From positions 448,001 to 512,000 of the forward strand of contig CAXXET010000006.1 in NCBI GenBank assembly GCA_963666115.2: DNA of 64,000 nt. The letters run 5' to 3'. The notes below the pieces were generated by a model, which worked only from the letters and a program-made list of their open reading frames with translations, searched no databases and was not told where the DNA came from. A program made the translations under genes and the position numbers. Of this stretch, positions 1,046-58,537 are shown piece after piece; position 1 is the first letter of the stretch; every line of letters begins with the position of its first letter. The DNA comes from Dehalococcoidia bacterium. GTDB taxonomy: Bacteria > Chloroflexota > Dehalococcoidia > UBA6926.

Positions 1046-3589
1046 ATGGCAAGCAGATTTGAAAAGTTCTCGGAGCGCGCCAGGCGGGTTCTCTCCCTGG
1101 CGCAGGAAGAGGCGGGCGAACTCAACCACAACTACATCGGCACGGAGCACGTCCTTCTTGGACTTGCGCGTGAGCCGGAGGGCGTCGGCACCCGCGTCCT
1201 CGTGTCTCTTGGTGTCGACCTCTCCAAGATCCGGTCCGCCGTTACCTTTATCATCGGGCGGGGCCAAAAGCAGCAATCGACCGACGTCGGTCTCACCCCG
1301 CGCGCCAAGAAAGTCATTGAACTCGCCGTCGACGAGGCGCGTGAGATGTCGCATCACTATATCGGCACGGAACACTTGCTCATCGGACTGCTGCGCGAGG
1401 GCGACGGCGTTGCCGCGGGAGTCCTTGAGAGTCTTGGGGTAACTCTCGACAAGGTGAGGCAGGAGACCCAGCGCATCCTGAGCCAATCCGGCGGGCAGCC
1501 GGGCAGCAGGTCCGGCACGCGCACCCCGACTCTTGATCAACTTGGCGTGGATTTGACGCAGTTGGCCCGTGAAAGGCAGCTTGACCCGGTCATTGGGCGG
1601 CAGCAGGAGATCGAGCGCGTCGTCCAGATTCTCTCGCGGCGCACCAAGAACAATCCCGTTCTCATTGGCGAGCCCGGTGTTGGCAAGACCGCCATCGTTG
1701 AAGCCCTTGCCAGGCGCATTGCCGGTGTTGACGACACGGATGCCGCAGACGTGCCGGGCAACCTCAAGGGCGCCCGCCTCGTCACGCTTGACATGGGGGC
1801 GCTCGTCGCGGGCACCAAGTACCGGGGCGAGTTTGAGGAGCGTCTCAAGAAGGTCGTCGACGAGATTCGCTCGGCCAAGAACATCATTCTTTTCATCGAC
1901 GAAATGCACACCCTCGTCGGGGCGGGCGCAGCCGAGGGCGCGGTCGACGCGTCCAACATCCTGAAGCCGTCGCTCGCCCGCGGCGAACTCCAGACAATCG
2001 GCGCGACCACGCTGGACGATTACCGCCGCTACGTTGAGCGCGACCCTGCGCTGGAGCGGCGCTTCCAGCCCGTCCGCGTTGAGGAGCCGTCATCCGACGA
2101 CACCGCCAAGATCCTGCGCGGCGTCAAGGGGCAGTATGAAGAGCACCACAGCCTTACCATCACCGATGAGGCCGTGGAGGCCGCCGCCACGCTCGCGGCC
2201 CGGTACATCGCGGATCGTTTCCTGCCGGACAAGGCCATCGACCTCATCGATGAGGCTGCAAGCCGTGTTCGCATTCGCGCCTCGTCCATGCCTCTCTCCG
2301 TCAAGGAGGCGATGAGGGCGCTTGAGCGCGTCCGCGCTGAAAAGGACAACGCTGTTGCCGCCGCCAATTTCGATTTCGCCGCCGAGATGCGCGAGCGTGA
2401 GGTCAGCCTCGCCGAGCGCATCGCCCGCCTTGAGCAGGAATGGCAGAACGAGCAGGAAAGCGCGATACCGGAGGTGACCGAGGACGACATCGCCCAGGTG
2501 GTGAGCATGTGGACGAATATCCCGGTCACGCGCCTCGCCGCCGAGGAGAGCGAGCGGCTGCTGCACATGGAAGAGGTGATGCACGGCCGCATCATCGGTC
2601 AGCATGAGGCCATCATCAATGTCTCCAAGGCCGTGCGCCGCGCGAGGGCGGGGCTGAAGGATCCGCGCCGCCCCATCGGCACATTCCTGTTCCTTGGGCC
2701 GACGGGCGTTGGCAAGACCGAGCTTGTCCGCGCGCTGTCCGAGTTCATGTTCGGCTCGGAGGACTCTCTCATTCGCCTTGACATGTCCGAGTTCATGGAG
2801 CGCCACACTGTCGCGCGACTCGTTGGCGCGCCGCCGGGGTACGTCGGCTTTGATGAGGGCGGACAGTTGACGGAAGCCGTGCGCCGCAATTCCTACTGCG
2901 TGATCCTCCTCGATGAGATCGAGAAGGCGCACCCGGAGGTCTTCAATATCCTGCTGCAGATCTTTGATGACGGCCACCTGACCGACGCCAAGGGCCGCAA
3001 GGTGGATTTCCGGAACGCCATCGTTGTCATGACGTCCAACATCGGCGCGGAGGTCATCAAAAAGAACTCCAATATCGGCTTCTCCTATGCGCGCGACGAA
3101 ACCGACGTGCGCCGGCAGAGCTATGACCGCATGAAGGACAAGGTGCTGGACGAGGTCAAGGAGTTCTTCCGGCCTGAGTTCCTCAACCGCATTGACGCGC
3201 AGGTCGTCTTCCATTCGCTTGATCGCGAGCACATCCGCCAGATCGTCGACCTGATGATGAAGGACGTGGAAAAGCAGCTGGAAACCAAGAAGATCACCAT
3301 TGAGGCCACCGACGCGCTGCGCGACCACGTTGGCGAAAAGGGCTACGACGAGACCTACGGCGCAAGGCCGCTCCGGCGCGTGATCCAGGACATGATCGAA
3401 GACAGGCTGTCCGACGACATCCTGAGCGGTCAAATCGCCGAGGGCGACACGGTTCACGTGGACTACGTGGACGAAGAGGTTGTGGTGACGGTCCTGGAGC
3501 GCGTGCAGTTGGAGCCGACCGGTACGAGCGATACTGTCGAAACAGAGGAAGCTGCCGAGACTCCTGAGACCGTCGAGGTGGCGGGCTAG
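1046..3589 (+). CDS. clpC: ATP-dependent Clp protease ATP-binding subunit ClpC
   Basis: Double Clp-N repeat ([16 protein letters not shown]), two AAA modules ([16 protein letters not shown]), UVR-like middle domain, GARPLRR. Confidence 0.97.
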
Positions 3590-3610
3590 CTGACGGCCGG
3601 GTCTGGCACG

Positions 3611-4426
3611 ATGCCACGACCACATATCGTGGACAAGCGCGAGCAACTGCGCGCGCAGCTACGGGAAATGGGTTCGATCATCGTTTCCTTTTCGGGAGGC
3701 GTCGACTCCAGTCTTCTTCTCGCTGAGGCCGTCGATGTCCTGGGACAGGACGCTCTTGCGGTAACCGCGCTCTCCCCCACGTTCGCCGATTCGGAGGCTG
3801 AGGACGCGCGAGACATTGCCGCGTTCCTGGATGCCCGCCATGAATTCTTCTACACGGATCAACTGGACATGGAGGGCTTCGCGGCAAACGATGGCCGCCG
3901 CTGCTACTTCTGCCGCGTTGACCTGTTCTCCCAGCTTCGCACGATTGCCGAGGAGCGCGGGATTCCCTGGGTCATCGACGGCACTCTCATCGACGACCTG
4001 GGAGACGTGCGCCCCGGCCTAAAGGCAAAGGATGAGCAGGGAATCCGCAGCCCGTTCGTCGAGGTCGGCCTGACCAAGGACGAGGTGCGCCAACTTGCTC
4101 GCGAACGCGGACTGCCCAACTGGGATAAGCCTGCCGAGTCGTGCCTCGCATCTCGCATTCCGTTGGGCACGCCCGTCTCGTTCGAGCTTCTCGACAAGAT
4201 CGCCCGCGCGGAAAAATATCTCCGTGAGCAGGACTTCAAGCAGGTTCGCGTCCGCCATCACGGCGCAATTGCCAGGATCGAAGTCCCCCCGGAGGATATG
4301 GAGCGGTTGATCGCCGGGGACTTGCGCGATGACCTGACCAACCACATTCGTGAACTGGGCTATCTCTTCGTGACGCTGGACCTCGCCGGCTACAAGACCG
4401 GCAGCCTGAATACGCGCCGGGTATAG
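3611..4426 (+). CDS. larE: LarE-family ATP-dependent sulfur transferase (nickel-pincer nucleotide cofactor biosynthesis)
   Basis: PP-loop SGGVDS, RCYFC, D.RPG, WDKPA.SCLASRIP, QVRVRHHG..ARIE; adjacent to larC. Confidence 0.92.
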   Translation: MPRPHIVDKREQLRAQLREMGSIIVSFSGGVDSSLLLAEAVDVLGQDALAVTALSPTFADSEAEDARDIAAFLDARHEFFYTDQLDMEGFAANDGRRCYFCRVDLFSQLRTIAEERGIPWVIDGTLIDDLGDVRPGLKAKDEQGIRSPFVEVGLTKDEVRQLARERGLPNWDKPAESCLASRIPLGTPVSFELLDKIARAEKYLREQDFKQVRVRHHGAIARIEVPPEDMERLIAGDLRDDLTNHIRELGYLFVTLDLAGYKTGSLNTRRV

Positions 4427-4437
4427 GTCAGGGCCAC

Positions 4438-5652
4438 ATGCGAATCGCGTGGCTGCAATGCGCGAACGGCGTCAGCGGCGACATGCTGCTTGGGGCGCTT
4501 GTGGACGCGGGCGCGCCGGTGGACGCGATGAACGCGGCGATCAGCAGCGTCTTTCCCGATAAAGTGGTCAAGCTCACGCCCGATGAGGCGTACCGCGCCG
4601 GAATCCGCTCAACACATATGCAGGTTTCAGGGGGCGATGATGCTGAGGGCGGCCACACACCGCTGTCCGAGCTCATTGGACGCCTTGAGAACTCCACGTT
4701 GCCGAAGGACATCACTGAACATGGCACGGCAATACTGCGCCGGATTGGCGAGGCGGAAGCGCGTGTCCACGGCGGCAGTGTTGACGATGTGGAACTCGCG
4801 GAGCTTGGGTCGGCTGACACGCTTGTTGACATTGTTGGCACGCTTGTCGGCCTGGAAGAACTTGGAATTGAGTCCCTGTACTCCACGGGCTTGCCGCTGG
4901 CGACCGGCCGCGTGACGACTCATCATGGAGTCCTGCCTGTGCCGGCGCCCGGCGTGCTGGAAATGATGCGGCTGGCGGGAGCGCCTGCGCTGCCGCCCCC
5001 ATCGGCAGGCGAGGGTCAGCCAACCGGCGAAATCGTGACGCCCACGGGCGCGGCCATCCTCACAACGCTTGCCTCATTTGACCCTCCCCCTGCAATGAGC
5101 GTGGTTCATTCCGTTGGCTACGGGGCAGGCACGAAAGACCCAAAGGGCAGGGCAAACATCGTCACCCTCATCGTTGGAGAGGCTGCCGATGAGCCCGCGC
5201 GGGTTCAGCAGATGGTCATGATCGAGACCACGATCGACGATATGAACCCCGAGATATACGACTACGTTCGCGAGCGTCTGATGGCGGCGGGCGCGCGAGA
5301 CGTGTGGCTCCAGGATGTCCAGATGAAGAAGGGCCGCCCCGGCGTGATCGTGTCCGCAATTGCGCCGGAGTCTGCGCGGGACGCAATCGTCGGAGAGCTG
5401 CTCCGTGAAACGACGACGTTAGGCGTTCGCGTCACGCCCGTCACCCGCTACGAAGCGGCCAGAGAGTCAGTCGTCGTAGACACTCCGCTGGGCCCTGCGC
5501 GTGTGAAGGTGAAACGCTTGACGCCTGATGGGGAGATAGTCGGCTTTGCGCCGGAGTATGAGGATTCCCGCCGGCTGGCTGAACAGTCGTCCGTGCCGCT
5601 CAGCCGGGTGTATGACATCGTGCGCCGGGCGGCGGAGGACTCGCTGCTCTGA
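4438..5652 (+). CDS. larC: LarC-family nickel insertase (cyclometallase), fused LarC1-LarC2
   Basis: GVSGDMLLGALVD, HG.LPVPAP, GEIVTPTGAAIL, ETTIDDMNPE, MKKGRPG, ETTTLGVR, PEYED. Confidence 0.92.
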   Translation: MRIAWLQCANGVSGDMLLGALVDAGAPVDAMNAAISSVFPDKVVKLTPDEAYRAGIRSTHMQVSGGDDAEGGHTPLSELIGRLENSTLPKDITEHGTAILRRIGEAEARVHGGSVDDVELAELGSADTLVDIVGTLVGLEELGIESLYSTGLPLATGRVTTHHGVLPVPAPGVLEMMRLAGAPALPPPSAGEGQPTGEIVTPTGAAILTTLASFDPPPAMSVVHSVGYGAGTKDPKGRANIVTLIVGEAADEPARVQQMVMIETTIDDMNPEIYDYVRERLMAAGARDVWLQDVQMKKGRPGVIVSAIAPESARDAIVGELLRETTTLGVRVTPVTRYEAARESVVVDTPLGPARVKVKRLTPDGEIVGFAPEYEDSRRLAEQSSVPLSRVYDIVRRAAEDSLL

Positions 5653-5752: not shown

Positions 5753-5825
5753 GCCCGAGTGGCGCAAGGGTAGCGCAGCCGATTTGTAATCGGCAGGTTA
5801 GCGGGTTCGAATCCCCTCTCGGGCT
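5753..5825 (+). tRNA. tRNA-Thr(TGT)
   Basis: Acceptor stem GCCCGAG/CTCGGGC, anticodon arm GCCGA-TTTGTAA-TCGGC, GTTCGAATC T-loop; CCA not fully encoded. Confidence 0.93.
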
Positions 5826-5901
5826 CCGGCATCACCGTATGCCGCCCGCAGGCACGACGACGCATTGAGAGAAGGAAGCAGAAATACCGCAAAGGAGAGA
5901 G

Positions 5902-5977
5902 GCCCACATAGCTCAGGCGGTAGAGCACGTTCTTGGTAAGAACGAGGTCACCAGTTCGAATCTGGTTGTGGGCTCCA
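5902..5977 (+). tRNA. tRNA-Thr(GGT)
   Basis: Acceptor stem GCCCACA/TGTGGGC, anticodon arm CGTTC-TTGGTAA-GAACG, T-loop GTTCGAATC, encoded CCA. Confidence 0.97.
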
Positions 5978-12547: not shown

Positions 12548-13216
12548 ATGAACGATGTCATGTTGCTGGTGGGCGTCCTGATTGGGGCTTACCTGGCAGG
12601 GTCTCTTCCAACGTCCGTCATCATGTCGCGGCTGGTCGCCGGCGTTGACGTGCGTGACCTGGGAACCGGCAATGCCGGGGCGGCCAACGTGTTTCGGGAG
12701 ATCGATCCCCGCGTCGGCGTCTTTGTCGCCGTCGTTGACATCCTCAAGGGGCTCCTGCCGGTGCTGATTGCCGATCGCGTTCTTGATCTTGGCCCGGCGG
12801 GAGGGGTGATTGCGGCGGCCGGCGCGCTGTGGGGGCACCAGTACTCCGTGTTCCTGAAGTTCAGGGGCGGGGCCGGTCTGGCCTCTGCATTTGGCGGTAT
12901 ATGCGGACTCATGCTGGGCCCGGCCGCGGCGGCGGGCTGCGTGGGATTCCCCATGCTGCTCGTGACGAAGAACATGGGGTGGACGGGCGGCGTCACAATC
13001 GCCATCGCATTCGGCATCACCGCGGTTTCAGTCTTTACGGACATCCAACTGCCCGCCCTGATAGCGATGGAAGACGCCGGGTATCTGTATGGCGGATTCC
13101 TTATTGGTCTCCTTCTTGCGCTTCCCTTCTGGCTGCGGATGCTCTTCGCGCTTCGCGCCGCTCGCGGCGAAGACGCCGGACGCGATGCCTCGTCGACCAC
13201 GGAGGACCAAAGATGA
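12548..13216 (+). CDS. plsY: Glycerol-3-phosphate acyltransferase PlsY
   Basis: YL.GSLP, GTGNAGAANVFR, DILKG, GHQYSVFLKFRGG. Confidence 0.88.
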   Translation: MNDVMLLVGVLIGAYLAGSLPTSVIMSRLVAGVDVRDLGTGNAGAANVFREIDPRVGVFVAVVDILKGLLPVLIADRVLDLGPAGGVIAAAGALWGHQYSVFLKFRGGAGLASAFGGICGLMLGPAAAAGCVGFPMLLVTKNMGWTGGVTIAIAFGITAVSVFTDIQLPALIAMEDAGYLYGGFLIGLLLALPFWLRMLFALRAARGEDAGRDASSTTEDQR

Positions 13217-14141
13217 TCAGGGTGCCGATGGCGATGATGATCGGCGGGATGAAGAATCCCGCGTGGATGATGATGCCGAACGCCAGCGCGGCCTCCTTGT
13301 CCACGCCGTAGAATCCCAGGAAAGCGACTGCCGCCGCCTCAAACGGGCCGATGCCGGACGGCAGGCCGGGCAGAAATGAGGCCAGCGTCATTGTTCCCAG
13401 CACGACGACGTAGATGATGACGTAGACCTCAAAGACGTTCTCCGAATTATTGGGGGCGAGCCCCTTGCTAAACGCGACGAGGTACGCGGCGAGGCCCAGG
13501 GTCATCCACGTCGCCAGCGTGATGCCCATGACGGATGCCAGCTTCCTGGGTTGGGCGATGAGCTCCTGCCATGCCGCCGAATACGTTCTCACAATGGGGA
13601 ATCGATCAAACCACGTGATCTTGTCCGTATAGAGGGACAGCACCGCAACGGCGACGAGGAGTCCGACCAGCAGGAGAATGATGATGCTCAGGTATGACGC
13701 TCCCTCCGGCGCGAAGATGATGAATCCGACCGCGAGGCTTCCCAGGGTAACCGCGAGGTCCGACACGCGCCCCAGGACAATTGATGCGAGGGCAACACCC
13801 CTGTCGTACCCCTCCCGCAGCGCGATGTAGCCGAACTGAATGGGTTCAGCGACGACCCGAATTGGCGCGAGGTTGTTCATGCCCTGGCCGGTGTTCTCCA
13901 CGAAGAACAGCAGCGTGGCCGTGGGCGCGCGGCCATGGAAGAGCATTTTCCACCTGAATGCCCGGATGGCGTTACTGGCAACGACGACGCCCATCACGGG
14001 AATCAGCAGGTACCAATTGAACTCCGAGAGCTGGGTCATCAACTCGGCCCACTGGACTTCACGGACGACGATATAGGCAACCCCAATTCCGAGGGCCACT
14101 CCAATCAGGATTCGCCCGTAAAGCCATATTTGTCTCGGCAT
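13101..14141 (-). CDS. Lysylphosphatidylglycerol-synthase-like TM (flippase-like, UPF0104) protein
   Basis: R..RW.ML, NNLAP.R, P.LPSGIGPFE motifs; about 8 TM segments. Confidence 0.8.
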   Translation of the reverse strand: MPRQIWLYGRILIGVALGIGVAYIVVREVQWAELMTQLSEFNWYLLIPVMGVVVASNAIRAFRWKMLFHGRAPTATLLFFVENTGQGMNNLAPIRVVAEPIQFGYIALREGYDRGVALASIVLGRVSDLAVTLGSLAVGFIIFAPEGASYLSIIILLLVGLLVAVAVLSLYTDKITWFDRFPIVRTYSAAWQELIAQPRKLASVMGITLATWMTLGLAAYLVAFSKGLAPNNSENVFEVYVIIYVVVLGTMTLASFLPGLPSGIGPFEAAAVAFLGFYGVDKEAALAFGIIIHAGFFIPPIIIAIGTLIIFGPPWSTRHRVRRLRRERREARRASAARREAQEGDQ

Positions 14142-31903: not shown

Positions 31904-31995
31904 TGGCGGAGAGAGCGGGATTCGAACCCGCGAGGGCCCGGTAAGACCCTACACGCTTTCCAGGCGTGCCTGTTCGGCCACTCCAGCACCTCTCC
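31904..31995 (-). tRNA. tRNA-Ser(GGA)
   Basis: Reverse complement GGAGAGG...CACGC-CTGGAAA-GCGTG, long variable arm, GGTTCGAATCC, CCA end. Confidence 0.96.
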
Positions 31996-32001
31996 GTCTT
32001 G

Positions 32002-32095
<94 letters not shown>

Positions 32096-41913: not shown

Positions 41914-42623
41914 TCATCGCCATCGATACTGCCACTGAGACGGCAAGCGTTGCGATTGCCCATCCGGAGGGTGGAATCGCCGCTGAACTCACGTGGCGCG
42001 CCGGCCGCAACCACACCATGCACGTCCACCCCACGCTTCGCCACCTCATGATGCTGGCAGGAATCACGCCGGACGATTTGACCGGCGTCGTGGCAACGCG
42101 CGGCCCGGGCAGCTTTACCGGCATCCGCATTGGGCTCGCGACGGCCAAGGGCCTCGCGCAAGGCCTCGGCGTGCCGATCGTCGGCGTGGGAACGCTTGCC
42201 GCATCAGCGTACGGCACCGTTCATCTTGGCCGCGCGGTGTGGTCGGTGGTGGGCGCGGGGCGGGGGCAATATGCTGCCGCTGCGTACACGGCGTCGGACG
42301 ATGGCGGCGTCGAACAACTCGTCGAGGAGGCTATCGTCTCGCCGGAGGACCTTGTTGCGCGGATGGCTGAACGCGGGGAGGACTGTGTCCTGACAGGCGA
42401 GTTTGACGAGGCGCTGGCAGACGCGGCGGCAGGTGATCTTGGGAATGCGCTCGCAATCGCGCCGGACGTCGTTCGGACGAGGACGGCGGCCAATGCCGCG
42501 CGGCTGGGTTTGCTGCGTCTGAATCGCAGCGACGTGGATGACGTCTCGACCCTGGAGCCGCTGTATTTGAGGCCGCCGGCGGCGGTGGAGCGGGCGGAGG
42601 CGCAGGCGGCGGCTAAAGGGTAG
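41910..42623 (+). CDS. tsaB: t6A biosynthesis protein TsaB
   Basis: IAIDTA, GPGSFTGIRIG, EPLYLR. Confidence 0.96.
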   Translation: MIIAIDTATETASVAIAHPEGGIAAELTWRAGRNHTMHVHPTLRHLMMLAGITPDDLTGVVATRGPGSFTGIRIGLATAKGLAQGLGVPIVGVGTLAASAYGTVHLGRAVWSVVGAGRGQYAAAAYTASDDGGVEQLVEEAIVSPEDLVARMAERGEDCVLTGEFDEALADAAAGDLGNALAIAPDVVRTRTAANAARLGLLRLNRSDVDDVSTLEPLYLRPPAAVERAEAQAAAKG

Positions 42624-42624
42624 G

Positions 42625-42789
42625 CTATTCCTGCTCCTTGTCCTTTTCCCGCAGCCGCTTTCGCCGACCCATGCGAGACATGAGCATCAACACGAGGATG
42701 ATGCCGACAATGAACCCAAAGCTAATGATCTCATCGGCCCAACCCGCCGCGCCGGTCAGCGCATGGGCAGGCAGCAGTGAACCAGGCAT
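42625..42789 (-). CDS. Small (54 aa) single-TM membrane protein
   Basis: MPGSLLPAHALTGAAGWADEIISFGFIVGIILVLMLMSRMGRRKRLREKDKEQE; TM helix plus basic tail; -10 element TATCCT 5 nt before ATG. Confidence 0.6.
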   Translation of the reverse strand: MPGSLLPAHALTGAAGWADEIISFGFIVGIILVLMLMSRMGRRKRLREKDKEQE

Positions 42790-42804
42790 ATGTAAGGATA
42801 CCGC

Positions 42805-43614
42805 GTGACAGACATCCCGCACGACCGCTACACCCACGGCCACCATCAATCCGTCGTCCAAAATCACGCGCGCCGGCGCGCGGAGGTGGACGCCTGGTTC
42901 CTCCTGCCCCACCTGACACCCGGTATGCGCCTGCTGGACGCGGGATGCGGGCCTGGTACGATCACCGTCGGGCTGGCGCGGGCAGTCGCGCCCGGCGCGG
43001 TTGTCGGCATCGATCTGTCCGAGGATGTGCTGGCGCAGGCGCGAGACCACGCAGCGTCCGAGGGTGTGGGCAACGTGACGTTCACGCGTGGGGACGTGTA
43101 TCAGCTCGATTACGAGGACGGCTCATTCGACGTCGTCTACGCCAATCAACTGCTGCAGCACCTGACGGATCAAGGGCGGGCGCTGCGCGAAATGCGCCGT
43201 GTCCTAAAACCCGGCGGGCTGCTGGCCATCCGGGAGACGGATTACGCCACCATGGCGCCCTCCCCAAAGTTCCCCGAGTTTGAGGAGTGGAGCCGCCTGT
43301 ACCACGACGTCGCCTACCGCAACGGGGCGGAGCCGGACGCCGGGCGAAATATGGCGCGTTGGACGCGGGAGGCAGGGTTTGCCGGCTATGAGCTGCATCC
43401 CAACGTGGTGGTGATGGACGGCGAGGAGGCGCGCTACTGGGGCCGCATGTGGTCGCAGCGCATCCTGCATTCCAACGTGGGGGAGGATGCGCTGAGGTAC
43501 GGTTTGGCGGAGCAGGCGGATTTGGACAGGATTTCAGCGGCGTGGGCGCGGTTCGCGGACTCCGAGCAGCCGTTTTACATGTACGCGCAGATAGGGGTTC
43601 TGGCGCGGAGATAG
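42805..43614 (+). CDS. Class I SAM-dependent methyltransferase (UbiE-like)
   Basis: LLDAGCGPG, FDVV, RVLKPGG. Confidence 0.9.
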   Translation: MTDIPHDRYTHGHHQSVVQNHARRRAEVDAWFLLPHLTPGMRLLDAGCGPGTITVGLARAVAPGAVVGIDLSEDVLAQARDHAASEGVGNVTFTRGDVYQLDYEDGSFDVVYANQLLQHLTDQGRALREMRRVLKPGGLLAIRETDYATMAPSPKFPEFEEWSRLYHDVAYRNGAEPDAGRNMARWTREAGFAGYELHPNVVVMDGEEARYWGRMWSQRILHSNVGEDALRYGLAEQADLDRISAAWARFADSEQPFYMYAQIGVLARR

Positions 43615-43734
43615 CGGGGCAAACACGGCGCGCGCATTGACAAGAGCGCCAATCATCCGAATCATGGTGACGTTCGCGCAGTTTGGAGGAGGCTGCGCGC
43701 GTCCGGCAGGCAGGTCATTCAGGACTGAGGAACC

Positions 43735-45075
43735 ATGTCTTCGTATCCAACCACGGTGGAGCGCCGCGTGTCCGCGCGCATTCCAACGGCCCACGGCCAA
43801 TTCCGGCTCGAATACTTCTCCAATGACGCAGACGGCAAGGAGCATCTGGCGTTTGTCTACGGCGACGTTGACGGACGCGCCAGCGTGCTTGCGCGCGTCC
43901 ATTCCGAGTGCCTGACAGGCGAGGTGTTCGGCTCCCAGCGGTGCGACTGCGCGTCCCAGCTTGATTCAGCTATCGAGGCGGTAGCGCGTGAGGGAGCCGG
44001 CGTGATCGTCTACCTGCGGCAGGAGGGGCGCGGCATTGGCCTGTTGAACAAGCTGCGCGCCTACAATCTCCAGGACGAGGGTCTCGATACCGTGGACGCC
44101 AATCTGCGCCTGGGGCACGGCGCGGACGAACGCGATTACACCGTTGCGGCATTGATCCTGGAGAGCCTGGGCGTCCGGTCCGTCAGGCTGATGACGAACA
44201 ACCCCGCGAAGGTTGAGGAGCTGCGCGGGCTGGGCATGGAGGTTGCGGGGCGCGTGCCCATGCCGGGCCCCGTTAACGAACAGAACGTGGATTACCTGAC
44301 CGCCAAGGTCAACCGGATGGGCCACATGCTTGACATCGAGCTGCCGGAAGCGGGCGGGGTGCCGGGCCCGTTCGCGCCCGCCGCCGAGAGGCGGGCAGCC
44401 GCAGAGGTCAACGGGCGGCCGTTCGTGACGCTGACGTACGCTCAGAGCCTTGACGGTTCGATAGCAGATGCCGATTCGCTGCCGTTGCACCTCAGCGGCT
44501 CCAAATCGACTGAAATGACGCATCTGCTGAGATCGTCCAACGACGCGATCCTGGTCGGCATCGGCACGGTCATTGCCGATGATCCGCGCCTTACCGTCCG
44601 GCTGGCGAACGGCAAGGACCCACAGCCAATCGTGCTGGACAGCCGCCTCCGCTGCCCGCTCAACGCGGCGCTGCTGGAGAGCTACCGCACAATGCCGTGG
44701 ATCGCGACGCTGGAGGACGCGCCGATGGAACGGCAGCTAGAACTGGAATCGGCGGGCGCGCGCGTCCTGCGCCTCCCCGCGCGGCAGGATGACGGGCTGG
44801 TTGACCTGGGGTCGCTGATGACGTGCCTCTATGAGGACGGCGTGCGAAGCCTGATGGTGGAGGGCGGCGCGCGCGTCATCACGGAGCTGCTTGCGGCGCG
44901 GCTCGTCGACCACGTCGTGATCACGATTGCGCCGATGCTCGTCGGTGGCCTCCGCGCCATCAAACACACGAACGGCAACGGCCACGCGCCATTCCCGCGC
45001 CTCCAGGGCCTCGGCTACAAGCGGGAGGGCGACGACCTGATCGTGTGGGGCAGGCCGGATTGGTCGCTGGATTGA
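43735..45075 (+). CDS. ribA: Fusion of GTP cyclohydrolase II (RibA) and a RibD-C/Rib7-type pyrimidine reductase
   Basis: RVHSECLTG...RCDC, QEGRGIGL.NKLRAY, TNNP.K; then PFVTLTYAQSLDG, DAILVG..TV..DDP.LT.R, LMVEGG. Confidence 0.9.
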   Translation: MSSYPTTVERRVSARIPTAHGQFRLEYFSNDADGKEHLAFVYGDVDGRASVLARVHSECLTGEVFGSQRCDCASQLDSAIEAVAREGAGVIVYLRQEGRGIGLLNKLRAYNLQDEGLDTVDANLRLGHGADERDYTVAALILESLGVRSVRLMTNNPAKVEELRGLGMEVAGRVPMPGPVNEQNVDYLTAKVNRMGHMLDIELPEAGGVPGPFAPAAERRAAAEVNGRPFVTLTYAQSLDGSIADADSLPLHLSGSKSTEMTHLLRSSNDAILVGIGTVIADDPRLTVRLANGKDPQPIVLDSRLRCPLNAALLESYRTMPWIATLEDAPMERQLELESAGARVLRLPARQDDGLVDLGSLMTCLYEDGVRSLMVEGGARVITELLAARLVDHVVITIAPMLVGGLRAIKHTNGNGHAPFPRLQGLGYKREGDDLIVWGRPDWSLD

Positions 45076-46094
45076 AGAGCAGCGCAGTAACGTTCGTTGG
45101 GCCGGGGCAAGTTGAGGTTCAACACGAGGAATTGAGCGGCGCGTCTGCCGGGCGCGCGCTCGTTCGGACGCGTGTCTCCGCAATCAGCGCGGGCACGGAA
45201 CTGCTCGTCTACCGTGGACAAGCGCCGTCCGAAATGGCCGCCGATGAGTCAATCGCCGCGCTCGGCGGCGACCTGTCGTTTCCGCTTCAATATGGTTATG
45301 CGGCAGCGGGAGACGTTGTCGAAACGGGAGAGGGGGTGGATGCCCGTCTGCGTGGTCGGCGCGTGTTTGCCTTCAATCCTCACGCCTCTCTCTTCGAGGC
45401 CGATCCCGGCGCGCTGATGGACATTCCCGACGGCGTGTCATACGAGGACGCGGCGATGCTGCCGTCGATGGAAACGGCAGTCAATTTCGCCATGGACGGC
45501 GCGCCGCTTGTGGGCGAAAACGTCCTGGTAATCGGGCAGGGCGTCGTGGGCCTGCTCACGACGGCGCTGCTGGCGCAGATCCCGCTCGGCGCGCTGGTGA
45601 CGTTGGACGGCATCGAGGCGCGGCGAGAGGCGTCGATGCGGCTTGGGGCAACGGCTGCGCTCGATCCCGCAGCCCCCGGCGTGATGGATGAAATCGCCGC
45701 AGCGTTCGGCGGTCGTGGGGCGGACCTGGTCTATGAGTTGTCCGGCAGGCCGGAGGCGCTGGATACGGCGATTGCGGCGGCGGGATACGGCGGCCGCGTC
45801 GTCATCGGCTCGTGGTATGGAACCAAGCAGGCGCCCATCGATTTGGGCGGCAGCTTTCACCGCAGCCGCATCAAGCTGGTCAGCAGCCAGGTTACGACCA
45901 TTGCGCCGGGGTTGTCGGGCAGGTGGGACAAGCAGCGGCGGTTCGAGACGGCGTGGCGAATGATCGAGCGAGTCCGGCCGGCGCAGTTGGTCACCCACCG
46001 CTTTCCCGTAGAGGACGCCCCCGCCGCCTACAAGCTGCTGGATGAATCGCCGGGCGATGCGCTCCAGGTTCTGCTGACGTACCATAATCCCTAG
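45072..46094 (+). CDS. MDR-family (zinc-binding-ADH-like) dehydrogenase
   Basis: SAISAGTE, GY...G, Rossmann GQGVVG, GSWYG; TTG start overlaps the ribA stop (TTGA). Confidence 0.85.
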   Translation: MKSSAVTFVGPGQVEVQHEELSGASAGRALVRTRVSAISAGTELLVYRGQAPSEMAADESIAALGGDLSFPLQYGYAAAGDVVETGEGVDARLRGRRVFAFNPHASLFEADPGALMDIPDGVSYEDAAMLPSMETAVNFAMDGAPLVGENVLVIGQGVVGLLTTALLAQIPLGALVTLDGIEARREASMRLGATAALDPAAPGVMDEIAAAFGGRGADLVYELSGRPEALDTAIAAAGYGGRVVIGSWYGTKQAPIDLGGSFHRSRIKLVSSQVTTIAPGLSGRWDKQRRFETAWRMIERVRPAQLVTHRFPVEDAPAAYKLLDESPGDALQVLLTYHNP

Positions 46095-46139
46095 CGGCGA
46101 GCCGATGGGCGGTAAATTCACCGGGAGGAACGGGAGAGA

Positions 46140-46523
46140 ATGTACTCGGTTTCCGTGACGCGCTCATTCACGGCGTGGCACTACCTGATCGGCGGCGACT
46201 TTGGCCCGGAGAACGAGCGCAACAGCCACGACTACGGCGTGGAGGCGCGGTTGGAGGGGCCGGGGCTGGATGAGCACGGCTACTTGGTGGACATTACCGC
46301 CGTCCGCGCCGCGCTGGACGAGGTGGAGTCGCGCTACGCGGGCAACACGCTCAACGACTTCGCGGAGTTCGACGGCTTGAATCCGAGCGTGGAACACTTC
46401 GCCCGCATCCTGTGGGAGTTCATCGCAGACCGCATCCCCACGGACTCGCTGACCGCCCTGACCGTGCGGATACGGGAGGACGATGACGCGTGGGCGTCCT
46501 ACGGCAGGGAGTTCTCCGCTTGA
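46140..46523 (+). CDS. 6-pyruvoyl-tetrahydropterin synthase (COG0720/QueD-like) homolog
   Basis: F.A.H....FGPEN..SHDY, G.LVD, LND..EF...NPSVE.FA, IRE T-fold motifs. Confidence 0.85.
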   Translation: MYSVSVTRSFTAWHYLIGGDFGPENERNSHDYGVEARLEGPGLDEHGYLVDITAVRAALDEVESRYAGNTLNDFAEFDGLNPSVEHFARILWEFIADRIPTDSLTALTVRIREDDDAWASYGREFSA

Positions 46524-47611
46524 AGGTCGGCCTGGTCATCTACGGCAGCCTGGACAACCTGTCCGGCGGCTACCTGTACGACCGCAAGCTGGTGGAATGC
46601 CTGCGGGCGGCGGGCGACGAGGTTCACGTCATCGGGATTCCCTGGCGGAACTATGGCCGCCACCTGGCGGACGGGTTCTCGAACCAGTTGCGGCGCGAGT
46701 TGATGTCCGCAGACGTTGACGTGATGCTGCAGGATGAGTTGAATCATCCGTCGCTCTGGCGTGTTAATCGTGCGGTTCGCGGTCGTTGGTCAATCATCTC
46801 CATCGTCCACCATCTCCGCATGAGTGAAATGCGGGCGGGCTGGAAGAATCGCGCGTATGGAGTCATCGAACGCGGCTATCTCCGCTCCGTCGACGGGTTC
46901 GTCTTCAACAGTGAAACGACGCGGGACACGGTTCACGCGCAGATAGGCGGCGATAAGCCGCACGTCGTGGCTTTTCCCGCCGGTGACCGGTTTCAGTCCG
47001 GCGTGACTGAGGAGGACGTAAGGGCCCGGGCCGCGGCGGACGGGCCGCTGCGAATCCTGTTCTTGGGGAACGTGATCGAGCGCAAGCAGCTCCACGTGCT
47101 GTTGGAGGCGCTGACGCTGGTGTGGAACGAGCCGATGTGGCTGGACGTCGTGGGCGGACTGGACGCGGAGCCGCAATACGCGGCGCGAGTACGAAGACAG
47201 GCCGAACGGCTGGGGCTGAGTGACCGCGTGGCATTTCACGGCCCGCTGGACGATGACGCGCTGCGGGAGCGCCTGGCATCCGCGCATGTTCTCGCCGTGC
47301 CGTCGTCCTATGAGGGATACGGTATTGTGTACGTGGAGGGCATGGGATTCGGACTGCCCGCGATCGCGACAGATTCCGGCGCGGCGCGGGAAATCGTCAC
47401 CGACCGCCGTGACGGGTTCCTGATCCCGACAGGCTCAGCGCCGGAATTGTCCATACGGCTGCGCGACCTTGCAACGGATCGAAAGCGTCTTGCCCGCATG
47501 GGCGGGCAGGCGCTCAAGCGGTTCGCCCGCCATCTCACGTGGGAGCAGTCCATGACAGCCGTCCGGGAGTTCCTGCTGGAAATCGTGGAGAAAGCCAATG
47601 CCGGGACCTGA
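46520..47611 (+). CDS. Glycosyltransferase family 4
   Basis: SGGYLYDR, RK, EGYGIVYVE (EX7E); TTG start overlaps the previous stop. Confidence 0.9.
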   Translation: MKVGLVIYGSLDNLSGGYLYDRKLVECLRAAGDEVHVIGIPWRNYGRHLADGFSNQLRRELMSADVDVMLQDELNHPSLWRVNRAVRGRWSIISIVHHLRMSEMRAGWKNRAYGVIERGYLRSVDGFVFNSETTRDTVHAQIGGDKPHVVAFPAGDRFQSGVTEEDVRARAAADGPLRILFLGNVIERKQLHVLLEALTLVWNEPMWLDVVGGLDAEPQYAARVRRQAERLGLSDRVAFHGPLDDDALRERLASAHVLAVPSSYEGYGIVYVEGMGFGLPAIATDSGAAREIVTDRRDGFLIPTGSAPELSIRLRDLATDRKRLARMGGQALKRFARHLTWEQSMTAVREFLLEIVEKANAGT

Positions 47612-48488
47612 AAACTACAGCACGGTTCGCTACCTCAAAGCTAAGGCTGCCGTCGATGACGACGCGCTCAATACGCGGGTGTACAACGCCCTGGCGGAGG
47701 GCATGGCCGGCATGGGAGACGGGCGGCCACTCCGCATCGTCGAGGTTGGCGCGGGCGTGGGCAGCACGTTCAGGCGGCTGTTTGCACGGGGGCTGCTTTC
47801 ACGCGGCGAGTACGTGATGGTCGATCTGGACACGGAAAGCCTTGCGGAAGCGGAACGCGCGGTTGGGGGCATCCTGGACGCGGGAGACCGCGCGGGGATG
47901 GCAGTGAACGTCGTGGCGGGAGATGCCGTCGCGTATCTGCGCGGGGAGGCAGAGGCGGGCCGCCGCGCCGACGTGATTATCGCGCAGGCGCTTGTCGATC
48001 TGCTAAACGTGCCGGCGTTCTTGGAGTCTGCCGCCAGCGCGCTCAGGCCGGGCGGGCTGCTTTATTTACCCATCACCTTTGACGGGGAAACCGTTTTCGA
48101 GCCTGCCGCCATGCCCGAGCTAGATGCGCTTGTGATTAACTCCTATCATCGCACGATGGACGAGAGGATGACCCCGGACGGCCTGCCAACCGGCGGCAGC
48201 AGGGCGGGGCGAACGCTGCTTGTGGAGTTGCCGCAGGCGGGTCTTGCAATAACGGCGGCGGGCGCGTCGGATTGGGTGGTGTACCCGCAGGGCGGGGAGT
48301 ATCCGGGGGATACGGCGTACTTCCTGCACCACATCATCAACTTCGTGTGGCAATCGCTGAGCAGCGACACCGGGGTGTTCAGCGCGGGGCTGGAAGAGTG
48401 GATTGGGCGGCGTCACCGCCAGATTGAGCAGGGCCAACTCATTTACATCGCGCGCCAGCTTGACGTTCTGGCGCGGAAACATGGTTAG
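47598..48488 (+). CDS. Class I SAM-dependent methyltransferase
   Basis: IVEVGAGVG motif I, LRPGG; overlaps the GT gene by 14 nt. Confidence 0.85.
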   Translation: MPGPENYSTVRYLKAKAAVDDDALNTRVYNALAEGMAGMGDGRPLRIVEVGAGVGSTFRRLFARGLLSRGEYVMVDLDTESLAEAERAVGGILDAGDRAGMAVNVVAGDAVAYLRGEAEAGRRADVIIAQALVDLLNVPAFLESAASALRPGGLLYLPITFDGETVFEPAAMPELDALVINSYHRTMDERMTPDGLPTGGSRAGRTLLVELPQAGLAITAAGASDWVVYPQGGEYPGDTAYFLHHIINFVWQSLSSDTGVFSAGLEEWIGRRHRQIEQGQLIYIARQLDVLARKHG

Positions 48489-48497
48489 CGGCAGCGG

Positions 48498-49463
48498 CTA
48501 GTCGTCGTCCGCCGTTGGCTCATCGTCCAGGATGATGAAGTCGTCCGCGCCGCGCGCCCGCAGCGAGTCAAGCAGACTTTCCCCGATTTCCTGCGGGGAC
48601 GTCGATACACCGGTGGTCAGGGATTCCCGCAGCAGAATCGTTCCGTCCGGCGTGGCGGCCATCGCTTCAACGGAGAGCGCGCTGCCGCCAACTGTGGCAT
48701 AGCAGGCAAGGGGCGTGCGGCAGAACCCTCCCACCGCTCTCAGGAAAGCGCGTTCGGCTTCGGCGGCGAGCCTGTCGTTCCGGTCTTCGATGAGAGCCGC
48801 GACGGCGCATGCCTCGTCATTGCTTTCAAGACATTCGATGCCGAGCGCGCCCTGGCCGACTGCGGGGAGCATGATGTCCGGCTCAAGGTATTCCGTGATA
48901 GTGTCGTCCATTCCGAGACGTTGTAGCCCGACGGCGGCCAGCACGGCGGCCTCCGCCTCGATCTCCCGCCCCTCGCCGGTCACCTTGCGGACGCGCGTAT
49001 CCACGTTGCCGCGCAGCAGCACGATGTCAAGATCGGGCCGCGTCGCGAGAACCTGCGCGGCGCGGCGGATGCTGCCCGTGCCCACGCGCGCGCCGGGGGG
49101 GAGTTCGTTCAGCGTTTGGCCGTCTCGTGAGACGAGAACATCGCGGGGATCGTTGCGCGGCATGACGGCGGCCAGCGTGTGGCCGGGTGGGAGGCGCGTG
49201 GGCAGGTCCTTGAGGCTGTGGACAGCGAAGTCGATCTCGCCGTTGGCAAGCGCAATCTGTATCTCCTTGACGAACACGCCCTGCCCGAGGTCGGGGATGG
49301 GAGCGGTGGGGCGTCGTTCAGCCGCCGTCGTGATGCCCACAACCTCAAACGCAAGCTCCGGCCGCTGCGCCCGGACGGCCTGCATGAACATGTCCGTCTG
49401 GATCATCGCCAGGCGACTCGTTCGCGTGCCGACGCGGAGAGGGCGGTTTTGAGGAGAAGCCAT
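48498..49463 (-). CDS. hemC: Hydroxymethylbilane synthase
   Basis: GTR.SRLA..Q, G.FVKE, AVHSLKD, GTGS.RR, RGNVDTR, PAVGQGAL. Confidence 0.95.
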   Translation of the reverse strand: MASPQNRPLRVGTRTSRLAMIQTDMFMQAVRAQRPELAFEVVGITTAAERRPTAPIPDLGQGVFVKEIQIALANGEIDFAVHSLKDLPTRLPPGHTLAAVMPRNDPRDVLVSRDGQTLNELPPGARVGTGSIRRAAQVLATRPDLDIVLLRGNVDTRVRKVTGEGREIEAEAAVLAAVGLQRLGMDDTITEYLEPDIMLPAVGQGALGIECLESNDEACAVAALIEDRNDRLAAEAERAFLRAVGGFCRTPLACYATVGGSALSVEAMAATPDGTILLRESLTTGVSTSPQEIGESLLDSLRARGADDFIILDDEPTADDD

Positions 49464-50962
49464 TAGTCGTTCGCCGCCCACGCGCGGGCTGCGTCTACGA
49501 TGCCGTTCGCGGTGTGTTCAGCGGCCTCAACCGTGACGGTTAGCCCGACCTCCTCCGCGCCGCGTGACGTCGTTGGGCCGGCGGAGATGAACGGAATGCC
49601 GTCCAGGTGTGAGGCGTCCGCGCCAAGCGCCGTGACCAGGTTGCGGGCCGTCGACGGGCTGGTGAGGATAATCCCGTCGATGCCGCGCTCCATGGCCTCG
49701 CGGGCGCGTTCCGCGAGAGCCGGGCCGGCCATCGTCCGGTACACGACGACGGGATGAGGCTCAAGCCCGCGTTCGCGCAGGGCGTCGGGCAGGGCATCGT
49801 CCGCGAGGTTGCCGCGCGGCAGGAGAATGGCGTCCCCCGGTTGAGCGGCGGCTGCGATGGCGTCCGCCAATCCAACGCTGTTGTAGCGTTCCGGCATGGT
49901 GTCGTGCCTCAGCCCGTGCCGGTTCAACGCGGCGGCGGTGGCGGGGCCGATGGCGGCAAGCCGCGCGCCGGACAGACTGCGCCCATCGCGCCCGGTTGCC
50001 AGTAGGCGCCGCATGAAATAATCGACGCCGTTGACGCTGGTGAACGCGATGAAGTGGAAGCGCGGCGCGTCATCGAGCGCCGCATCCATGTCCGACTGCT
50101 CCTCCGCCTCTGCGAAAGCGACTGCGGGGACGTGGACGACTTCCGCGCCCGCGTCGTCCAGCATCGTGATCAGCTCCGCCGCCCGCGCCTCTCCCCGCAG
50201 AACCATGAGGCGGCGGCCAAACAGGGGCCTCTTCTCCAGCCACGCGATGCGGTCGCGGAGGCTGACGACGTGGCCGCACACGAGCAGCGCGGGCGCCTGG
50301 GCGCCGATGTCCGCGGCCTTGCCCGCAATCGTTCCCAGGGTGGCGACGGTCGTGCGCTGCTGTGACGTTGTGGCGCGTTCGATGAGCGCGGCGGGAATAT
50401 CGTCCGCCCAGCCGTCCGCTTTGAGAGATTCGACAACGGCGGCGAGAGTGCGGACGCCCATGAGGACGATGGCCGTTTCGCGCCCCGCCCCCGTGTCCGG
50501 CGGCTCTCCCGCCGCGCCCTGCCCGGTGAGGATGCGGACGGCGGAGGCATGGTGGCGGTCTGTTGGCGGGATGCCGGCGTAGGCGGGGCCGGCAAGCGCG
50601 GACGTGACGCCGGGGACGACGTCAAAGTCGACGCCCGCCTCCGCAAGGGCTGTGGCCTCCTCGCCGCCGCGTCCGAAGAGGAACGGATCGCCTCCCTTGA
50701 GGCGGACGACGCGCTTCCCGTTGCGGGCGCGGTCTACAAGGGTCTGGTTGATCGTTTGTTGGAGGCTGTGGCCGGAGGATGGATGCTTGCCGACGTTGAT
50801 CAGTTCAGCGCCGGAGCGCGCTTCGGCCAGCAACGAAGGGTTGACGAGCCTGTCATAGACGATGACGTCCGCGCGGCGGAGCAGACGCGCGCCGCGCACG
50901 GTGATCAGCCCCGGATCGCCCGGCCCCGCGCCCACCAGGTGGACGATGCCGCTCTCAGCCAC
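49463..50962 (-). CDS. cobA: Uroporphyrinogen-III C-methyltransferase / uroporphyrinogen-III synthase fusion
   Basis: GAGPGDP.LIT, RLKGGDPF.FGRGGEE; then HemD motifs FTS.NGV, AIGP.T, TSPS. Confidence 0.93.
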   Translation of the reverse strand: MAESGIVHLVGAGPGDPGLITVRGARLLRRADVIVYDRLVNPSLLAEARSGAELINVGKHPSSGHSLQQTINQTLVDRARNGKRVVRLKGGDPFLFGRGGEEATALAEAGVDFDVVPGVTSALAGPAYAGIPPTDRHHASAVRILTGQGAAGEPPDTGAGRETAIVLMGVRTLAAVVESLKADGWADDIPAALIERATTSQQRTTVATLGTIAGKAADIGAQAPALLVCGHVVSLRDRIAWLEKRPLFGRRLMVLRGEARAAELITMLDDAGAEVVHVPAVAFAEAEEQSDMDAALDDAPRFHFIAFTSVNGVDYFMRRLLATGRDGRSLSGARLAAIGPATAAALNRHGLRHDTMPERYNSVGLADAIAAAAQPGDAILLPRGNLADDALPDALRERGLEPHPVVVYRTMAGPALAERAREAMERGIDGIILTSPSTARNLVTALGADASHLDGIPFISAGPTTSRGAEEVGLTVTVEAAEHTANGIVDAARAWAAND

Positions 50963-58174: not shown

Positions 58175-58537
58175 TGGTGGAGGCGGGGGGGAGTTGAACC
58201 CCCCGTCCAAAGGCGGCTCCGGATGCGGCGCTACAGGCTTAGTCGGTCTTTGGTTTCTCGCCGCTCGCGGCCCCGGCCGACAGGAATCGCGAGCAGCCAG
58301 CCGGCGATGGTCTTTCGCTGCGCGTCACCGGCTGACGCGCAGCGGCGCCCCGCTAAAATGTCGCTCCAAAACCGTCCGCAGGGGTAACGACCCGGAACGT
58401 CGCTGCCTAGTGTTTAGGCTGCGAGTGCGAGCTGATTGTCGTTGCCAGCTACTCTTTGTGCCGCGGGATTAACGAGGTCACGGCGCCTCGGCCTGCTCAC
58501 GCACCCTCGCAGACCCCTGTCGAATCCGCGCGCCCCC
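58175..58537 (-). ncRNA. ssrA: tmRNA
   Basis: 5' GGGGGCG..GGATTCGAC and 3' GGTTCAACTCC..CGCCTCCACCA tRNA-Ala-like ends; tag ORF GNDNQLALAA* at 58446..58414; next to smpB. Confidence 0.96.

Follow-up and report, generated by a model that had tools for sequence, protein, structure and literature searches.

We analysed a 64,000-nt stretch of DNA from a Dehalococcoidia bacterium (G000:C6:448001-512000, hereafter the window) and concentrated on five consecutive genes at 43735-48488, which encode a fusion of GTP cyclohydrolase II (GCH II) with a RibD_C-type pyrimidine reductase, a medium-chain dehydrogenase/reductase (MDR), a PTPS-like T-fold protein, a family 4 glycosyltransferase (GT4) and a class I S-adenosylmethionine (SAM)-dependent methyltransferase. 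The cluster does not serve as this organism's operon for riboflavin, folate, queuosine or F420. The conservation of the five genes and the occurrence of their products as fusion proteins make it nearly certain that the enzymes belong to one pathway. We read the genes as one operon for a specialised metabolite derived from GTP, which would branch off the riboflavin route at the second step, and with guarded confidence, somewhat short of even, we propose that the whole chain leads from GTP to a sugar-bearing, methylated pterin-like compound.

Operon layout and conservation

The cluster comprises the following features:

43735-45075, forward strand: fusion of GCH II and RibD_C, 446 aa (open reading frame (ORF) list, Pfam, NCBIfam)
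45072-46094, forward strand: MDR oxidoreductase, 340 aa from the TTG at 45072, with an alternative GTG start at 45045 (ORF, Pfam, fold)
46140-46523, forward strand: PTPS-like T-fold protein, 127 aa (Pfam PF01242, PDB match, motif census)
46520-47611, forward strand: GT4 (Glycos_transf_1) glycosyltransferase, 363 aa from the TTG at 46520, with an alternative GTG at 46490 (Pfam)
47598-48488, forward strand: class I SAM-dependent methyltransferase, 296 aa (generic domain matches, structure model)
43637-43665, forward strand: promoter-like site TTGACA-17 nt-AATCAT, 70 nt upstream of the first start (a weak candidate)

The fusion and MDR genes share the TTGA at 45072-45075 and the PTPS-like and GT4 genes share the TTGA at 46520-46523, while the GT4 and methyltransferase genes overlap by 14 nt, with the ATG at 47598 and the TGA at 47609-47611. 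Between the MDR and PTPS-like genes lies a 45-nt spacer with a Shine-Dalgarno-like GGGAGGA ahead of the ATG at 46140. The five genes and three overlapping junctions described in an earlier note on this DNA were all seen directly. The automated ORF list extended the MDR and GT4 frames upstream to the GTG codons at 45045 and 46490, respectively; the TTG starts at 45072 and 46520 agree with the points at which homologue alignments begin. The promoter-like site is the sole one in 42500-49600, where shuffled sequences gave a mean of 1.0.

A pattern scan of data holding one genome per species returned at least 586 matching stretches, and at least 571 of them code for a protein related to the PTPS-like one. 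The best 80 of these loci (of at least 571) were compared by tblastn with the five window proteins, and only loci with enough flanking sequence were counted for each gene. Beside the PTPS-like gene, a GT4 gene was found in 68 of 74 loci, the MDR gene in 60 of 72, RibA/RibD_C in 54 of 68 and the methyltransferase gene in 51 of 70, and all five genes stood in the same order and on the same strand in 37 of 61 loci. Conservation beside the fusion thus extends to the remaining four genes. By record title, the carriers belong to Dehalococcoidia, Anaerolineae, Caldilineaceae, Desulfobacterales, Binatia, Blastocatellia, Holophagae, Methylococcaceae, Salinivenus and Spirochaetaceae, and the five-gene order spans records from Chloroflexota, Desulfobacterota, Binatia, Acidobacteriota, Methylococcaceae, Salinivenus and Spirochaetaceae. 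The GCH II and reductase domains were covered by a single tblastn high-scoring segment pair (HSP) in 28 loci and by two HSPs in 20; one domain only was matched in nine.

Ten genomes carry the PTPS-like and GT4 genes without the upstream partners. In seven of them an MDR orthologue is encoded elsewhere (440-544 bits), directly after RibA and RibD_C in five of the seven; among the three split genomes with no MDR match are some of 1.8 and 2.1 Mb, which may be incomplete. The system therefore consists of two modules, RibA-RibD_C-MDR and PTPS-GT4, the latter with or without the methyltransferase.

Several of these activities are also joined in single polypeptides, most of which are single metagenomic sequences:

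P0125 and P0126, 611 aa: GCH II-MDR
P0127: MDR-GT4
P0129: RibD_C fragment and MDR
P0130, 1278 aa, seven member sequences: three PTPS stretches followed by MDR
P0132: RibD_C-MDR-PTPS, in operon order

A further apparent MDR-PTPS fusion (P0123) was discarded, its internal stretch of lost similarity having the look of frameshifts. In a single 360-aa sequence (P0122), a ComB-like 2-phosphosulpholactate phosphatase domain is joined to a PTPS-like domain, a hint that a phosphate may be removed at a step close to the PTPS reaction. Eukaryote transcriptome sources supplied two long sequences related to the MDR protein (P0128, 863 aa; P0131, 656 aa), and the pathway may extend beyond bacteria and archaea.

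The five proteins and their genomic setting

The fusion protein matches GTP_cyclohydro2 (PF00925) over residues 10-175 with 229 bits and RibD_C over residues 229-425 with 151 bits, giving a GCH II domain of about residues 10-200 and a pyrimidine reductase domain of about residues 227-440. It passes the NCBIfam cut-offs for ribA (TIGR00505, 252.1 bits against 205.85) and for the C-terminal domain of RibD (TIGR00227, 162.2 bits against 150.15), and falls below that for the archaeal DARPP reductase, ArfC (TIGR01508, 140.7 bits against 186.45). The N-terminal half has RibBA (4i14) and RibA (2bz0) as relatives in the PDB. The reductase half scores 97-105 bits against the stand-alone reductases 7lrh, 2azn and 6p8c and 80 bits against Bacillus subtilis RibD (2b3z), and judged by these matches it is nearer to stand-alone reductases of the archaeal and fungal type than to bacterial RibD. 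Tyr110 of the fusion corresponds by alignment offset to Tyr105 of the Escherichia coli enzyme, and a tyrosine is present in all 48 homologous HSPs that cover the position; the tyrosine at this position is said to steer the reaction to the deformylated diaminopyrimidine rather than the formylated product. Pfam found no deaminase domain in the fusion, and since no deaminase is present, the substrate of the fused reductase should be the diamino compound.

The genome (2.07 Mb in nine contigs, scored 100% complete, with Dehalococcoidia metagenome-assembled genomes as its closest public records) contains a complete ribD-ribE-ribBA-ribH operon at about C6:68.7-72.4 kb, some 420 kb from the cluster. 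The fusion is therefore not the only ribA/ribD of the genome, so that a refuting condition set in the earlier note does not apply; it duplicates the first two activities of riboflavin synthesis as a dedicated second copy. The genome also encodes folE and folB, and genome searches found no FolE2, no CofH or CofD, and no QueC above the cut-off. Within the cluster, Pfam and NCBIfam revealed none of ribB, ribE, ribH, folE, queC or a deaminase domain. A standard cofactor operon is excluded by this combination of an own rib operon, folE and folB with missing QueC, CofH and CofD, which bears out the earlier note's view that the cluster does not serve riboflavin, folate or queuosine, and a role in F420 synthesis in this genome was rejected on the lack of CofH and CofD. 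Two further observations concern pterin genes elsewhere in the genome. A Pterin_bind (FolP-like) match at G000:C1:40378-41218 lies in three pieces in separate frames of 177, 70 and 172 aa and may represent a frameshifted gene or an assembly error. At G000:C4:297377-300152 (L092, 5378-8153), an Acetyltransf_6 (GNAT) gene stands directly behind folE and is itself followed by another GT4 gene, with 4-nt overlaps at each junction.

In the MDR protein, Pfam matched ADH_zinc_N, the Rossmann half, alone, and ADH_N was unmatched. A structure model built from 27 sequences reached a mean predicted local distance difference test score (pLDDT) of 89.9. Foldseek placed this model closest to 2d8a, 4ilk, 5vm2, 6ie0, 6dkh and 1e3j, that is, to threonine, butanediol, idonate and sorbitol dehydrogenases, RspB and YdjJ, with template modelling (TM) scores of 0.78-0.81, and the ESM Atlas returned only generic clusters of alcohol dehydrogenases. 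The motif G155-x-G157-x-x-G160 and five arginines are invariant, and Asp179 is nearly so. An acidic residue at this position after GxGxxG is the signature of NAD-type enzymes. The modelled fold and the NAD-type aspartate would fit oxidation of a ribityl chain. We place the MDR protein early in the pathway, probably directly after the reductase step, because it travels with and fuses to the RibA and RibD_C activities and not with the glycosyltransferase; the same association argues against a role in the synthesis of the sugar donor.

The PTPS-like protein is the product of the sole PF01242 gene of the genome (77.6 bits). Its best match in the PDB is SCO6650 (3d7j), with an E value of 2.3e-8 for the single sequence and 5.3e-18 for a profile of 23 relatives, followed by QueD and PTPS at 1e-6 to 1e-4. 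Across 110 loci, H14, E24, H30, Y32, H46, E85 and E113 are near-invariant and position 28 is His in 101 and Asn in nine, giving a family motif of E-N-x-x-[H/N]-[S/T]-H. Around its Glu-Asn the family reads WGPEN in 54 of the 110 loci and WGAEN in 41, and the window protein FGPEN. Most members thereby keep an H...HxH set like that of the PTPS zinc site. Glu24 lies four residues ahead of the first His, as the Cys does in the QueD motif CxxxHGH, and HMMER aligned the QueD Cys as a one-residue insertion directly after Glu24. The window protein contains no Cys and scores 36.6 bits against the QueD model TIGR03367, whose cut-off is 89.25. In known PTPS enzymes, the metal site, the residue at the Cys position and the C-terminal Glu serve side-chain chemistry at C6 of a dihydropterin.

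Definitions of the named subfamilies were taken from PMC5041015 and PMC5445326, which cite Phillips 2012. According to the passages on motifs in these two papers, QueD (PTPS-I) has CxxxHGH, and PTPS-III, which replaces FolB, has ExxHGH. The cluster family resembles both in its PTPS fold, in the HxH of most members, in an acidic residue near the Cys position and in the C-terminal Glu. It differs from QueD in having no Cys, with Asn at the first His of the window protein and no QueC above the cut-off in the genome, and from PTPS-III in that its Glu stands four residues ahead of the first His rather than three and in that FolB is present in the genome. For PTPS-IV, the part of PMC5445326 that treats it gives the signature FGPAQ and a neighbourhood containing PF00925 and PF01872. 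SCO6650, the PTPS-IV representative, shares with our family the missing catalytic Cys and the neighbourhood of GCH II and RibD_C, and is the best solved relative. The PTPS-IV signature agrees with the window FGPEN in the first three residues and then has Ala-Gln in place of the Glu-Asn that is invariant in the cluster family; SCO6650 likewise aligns Ala-Gln there, and it has HGA where most cluster members have HSH. These differences make the cluster family look, from the residues, more like an active metalloenzyme than SCO6650 does. The protein may be PTPS-IV proper or may belong to another named subfamily such as PTPS-V, the function of which is called unclear in the relevant passage of PMC5041015. 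The link of PTPS-IV to GCH II and RibD_C is thus already in print (PMC5445326, in its account of that neighbourhood), and the cluster is a further copy of that type; the earlier note had pointed to a distinct COG0720 subfamily with such clusters, in agreement with this account. Our literature search found no published product for a cluster of the PTPS-IV type.

The glycosyltransferase matches Glycos_transf_1 with 113 bits (cut-off 26.4), and no NCBIfam equivalog scored above its cut-off. Among solved structures it is nearest to the Tll1590 protein (6kih), which we take to be a sucrose-phosphate synthase, MshA (7qsg, 3c4q), GlgM (6tvp), PimA (2gej) and PimB, enzymes that act on phosphorylated acceptors. 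No pteridine glycosyltransferase was among its PDB matches at E ≤ 1e-6. For the methyltransferase, Pfam and NCBIfam gave generic class I matches only, and no PDB sequence matched better than E 0.005. Its structure model (pLDDT 94.5) has small-molecule methyltransferases as nearest folds, at TM scores of 0.44-0.55, including the sugar O-methyltransferases RebM and AtmM.

The genes on either side of the cluster are unrelated to it. The 5′ flank encodes an MFS transporter, TsaB and a UbiE-like methyltransferase, and hemC and cobA-hemD lie convergently on the 3′ side, with 9 nt between the end of the methyltransferase ORF at 48488 and the stop-codon end of hemC at 48498. No terminator-like site was found between these two ORFs (48488-48498). 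The upstream methyltransferase gene (42805-43614) was considered as a member of the cluster and rejected, as it is kept only in the closest relatives (L007-L012), where it lies 1.9-3 kb from the cluster. In these relatives (L009-L012 at about 2500-5600; L011:2026-3828) an insert of 1.9-3 kb separates the upstream methyltransferase gene from the RibA fusion; it contains a 600-aa SMC/AAA_23-like ORF and a weak MDR-like match, and is missing in the window. At the Rfam gathering threshold the window yielded no riboswitch but only the following:

58175-58537 (reverse strand), 5753-5974 (forward strand) and 31907-32095 (reverse strand): a tmRNA gene and four tRNA genes (Rfam)

At E ≤ 1, Rfam gave nothing credible over 42500-49000, and hence no riboswitch or leader.

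A candidate route from GTP

On the basis of strong homology, the GCH II domain would open GTP to 2,5-diamino-6-ribosylamino-4(3H)-pyrimidinone 5′-phosphate, and the fused RibD_C domain would reduce this product to the ribitylamino form, with no deamination. The NAD-type, zinc-less MDR protein would then oxidise the ribityl chain, most likely at C2′, giving the same amino-ketone as an Amadori rearrangement, and this amino-ketone could close onto the 5-amino group to form 7,8-dihydroneopterin 3′-phosphate. The PTPS-like enzyme, with its metal site and a Glu as base, would rework or shorten the side chain of the pterin, the GT4 enzyme would add a sugar, and the methyltransferase would methylate the sugar or the ring. 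Such an Amadori rearrangement by two redox steps is compatible with the MDR fold, Asp179, the MDR fusions and the metal site and Glu of the PTPS-like family. Its product would not be needed for riboflavin, folate, queuosine or F420 in this genome.

Three known systems resemble parts of this route. In the archaeal and fungal order of riboflavin and F420 synthesis (GCH II or III, ArfC/Rib7, deamination), the product of the cyclohydrolase is likewise reduced before deamination, but the cluster has no deaminase, lumazine synthase or riboflavin synthase. In Chlamydia, RibA and TrpF form the GCH II product and take it through an Amadori rearrangement, the product of which yields dihydroneopterin monophosphate (PMC4161248, in its description of the bypass), as the earlier note had described. 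The cluster would start from the same compound and reach the same monophosphate; Chlamydia uses an isomerase, whereas the cluster would use a reductase and a dehydrogenase, and the Chlamydia route feeds folate without FolE, whereas this genome has FolE and FolB. The third system comprises the pterin glycosides of cyanobacteria and Chlorobium, in which a GT-B enzyme of the GT1/GT4-like kind would decorate the pterin, a likeness that concerns family placement only. The methylated sugar of cyanopterin would fit the methyltransferase. These pathways start from GCH I, in which they differ from the cluster. The Chlorobium enzyme CtPGT has been assigned to a "GT-1- and AviGT-4-like" family, in the section of PMC5683033 on its classification.

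A number of observations weigh against this route. The MDR protein lacks the catalytic zinc ligands Cys, His and Glu: the ligand Cys of the polyol dehydrogenases aligns with Ala or a gap, and their GHE is replaced by an invariant GY(A/S), which in the window protein is GYA with Tyr76 at the position of the His. Quinone reductases come next in the fold ranking, at TM scores of 0.74-0.79, and zinc-less MDR proteins are often ene- or quinone-reductases. The position of the oxidation, C2′, is purely what we infer. In the PTPS-like protein of the window, Asn replaces His at the second metal position, and the residues opposite the DH of QueD are not conserved in the family. PTPS-IV is said to act in F420 synthesis in a passage of the review PMC5041015 that cites unpublished work. 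Finally, FolE already makes dihydroneopterin triphosphate in one step, next to which a three-enzyme route looks redundant.

The distribution of GCH I enzymes was examined as well. Among 20 cluster-bearing genomes, FolE was found in 11 and FolE2 in six, with both in G017, so that at least one was present in 16. The remaining four (G007, G009, G010 and G012) have neither and all encode FolK. Three of them, the Caldilineaceae G007, G009 and G010 (loci L104-L106), whose records are titled complete chromosomes, also lack FolB and have FolK fused to FolP, which at first sight favoured the earlier note. We then examined 80 genomes from the order of G007, leaving out G100, for which there was a FolE search only; the presence of a PF01242 gene stood for the cluster, and the counts are not corrected for relatedness. 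FolE was present in eight, FolE2 in nine, a PTPS homologue in 47 and FolK in 51, distributed as follows:

FolK present, neither FolE nor FolE2 (34 genomes): PTPS homologue in 23, none in 11
FolE or FolE2 present (17 genomes): PTPS homologue in 11, none in six
No FolK (29 genomes): PTPS homologue in 13, none in 16

Counted by its PTPS homologue, the cluster does not occur more often in genomes that lack GCH I. A folate bypass as the general role of the cluster was rejected, as its presence is unrelated to the absence of GCH I and 11 genomes share the missing step without having it. The independence from FolE proposed in the earlier note is not supported as a need, since this genome has FolE and no tracking with the absence of GCH I was seen in the 80 genomes. 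We regard as improbable the most far-reaching form of the proposal, in which GCH II, the reductase and an NAD-dependent 2′-dehydrogenase build the pterin ring de novo by a second route that bypasses GCH I, a Glu-based PTPS relative trims the side chain, and an intermediate also supplies folate synthesis in lineages such as G007, G009 and G010. As an observation on the order itself, FolK without FolE or FolE2 in 34 of 80 genomes reveals a hole at the start of the pterin branch of folate synthesis, with or without the cluster.

Rival readings and significance

The most serious rival to the pterin-like product is a compound that retains the ribityl chain, which we judge possible and less probable than the pterin route. 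Here the GT4 enzyme would glycosylate the ribityl-phosphate, as MshA does with inositol phosphate, while the MDR and T-fold proteins would oxidise the chain elsewhere, carry out a reduction, or close the ring to an 8-substituted pteridine. The product would be a glycosylated, methylated diaminopyrimidine or a lumazine-like compound, attached to lipid in other lineages. This would account for the retention of the reductase, fused or separate (54 of 68 loci and the split modules), which is odd if the ribityl compound is a transient intermediate, and it agrees with the missing zinc of the MDR protein and with the phosphorylated acceptors of the nearest solved relatives of the GT4 enzyme. A lipid attachment is suggested by the genes found by the cluster in other genomes: of the 80 loci, 21 carry a gene for a CDP-alcohol phosphatidyltransferase of about 392 aa, 19 one for a DUF7475-like protein and 16 one for an LPG_synthase_TM protein, lipid genes being present in about a quarter of the loci. 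The PTPS-like family, however, has retained the metal site, the C-terminal Glu and a Glu spaced like the QueD Cys, and the MDR fold and Asp179 point to NAD-dependent oxidation of the polyol type. Moreover, by tblastn (E 1e-3) none of the three proteins found by the cluster elsewhere (the phosphatidyltransferase, the DUF7475-like and the LPG_synthase_TM protein) has an orthologue in this genome, and a lipid link was rejected for it on that ground. The genome has two CDP-OH transferases, in short open frames of 191 aa and 236 aa, and three LPG_synthase_TM genes that are situated away from the cluster. One LPG_synthase_TM gene, adjoining plsY, is situated within the window at 13101-14141 (reverse strand), 30 kb from the cluster, and by tblastn is not an orthologue of the cluster-linked one.

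Far less probable, in our estimate, is a spare supply line for precursors of riboflavin, F420 or folate, with the glycosyltransferase and methyltransferase as passengers. The Caldilineaceae genomes G007, G009 and G010, which combine the cluster and FolK with the absence of FolE, FolE2 and FolB, would suit it, as would an involvement of PTPS-IV in F420 synthesis, for which the passage in PMC5041015 rests on unpublished work. Against it, a genome scored as 100% complete has its own rib operon, folE and folB and no CofH or CofD, the cluster contains no deaminase, and 11 of the 34 FolK-positive genomes without FolE and FolE2 have no PTPS homologue. The supposed passengers are also conserved (GT4 in 68 of 74 loci, the methyltransferase in 51 of 70), and GT4 is fused to MDR in P0127. 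That five genes of unrelated functions are neighbours by chance is very improbable: GT4 and methyltransferase genes do come from very large generic families, but the gene order is kept across phyla, start and stop codons overlap, fusion proteins occur, and splits give two consistent modules.

The PTPS-like protein is encoded in at least 571 stretches of the one-genome-per-species data, from several bacterial phyla, and fused forms occur as far afield as eukaryote transcriptomes. Solving the pathway would explain what an entire COG0720 subfamily and a family of zinc-less MDR proteins do, and would correct the routine mis-annotation of the cluster genes as "RibA", "RibD" and "QueD". It would reveal either a new route to pterins or a new class of ribityl-pyrimidine glycosides.

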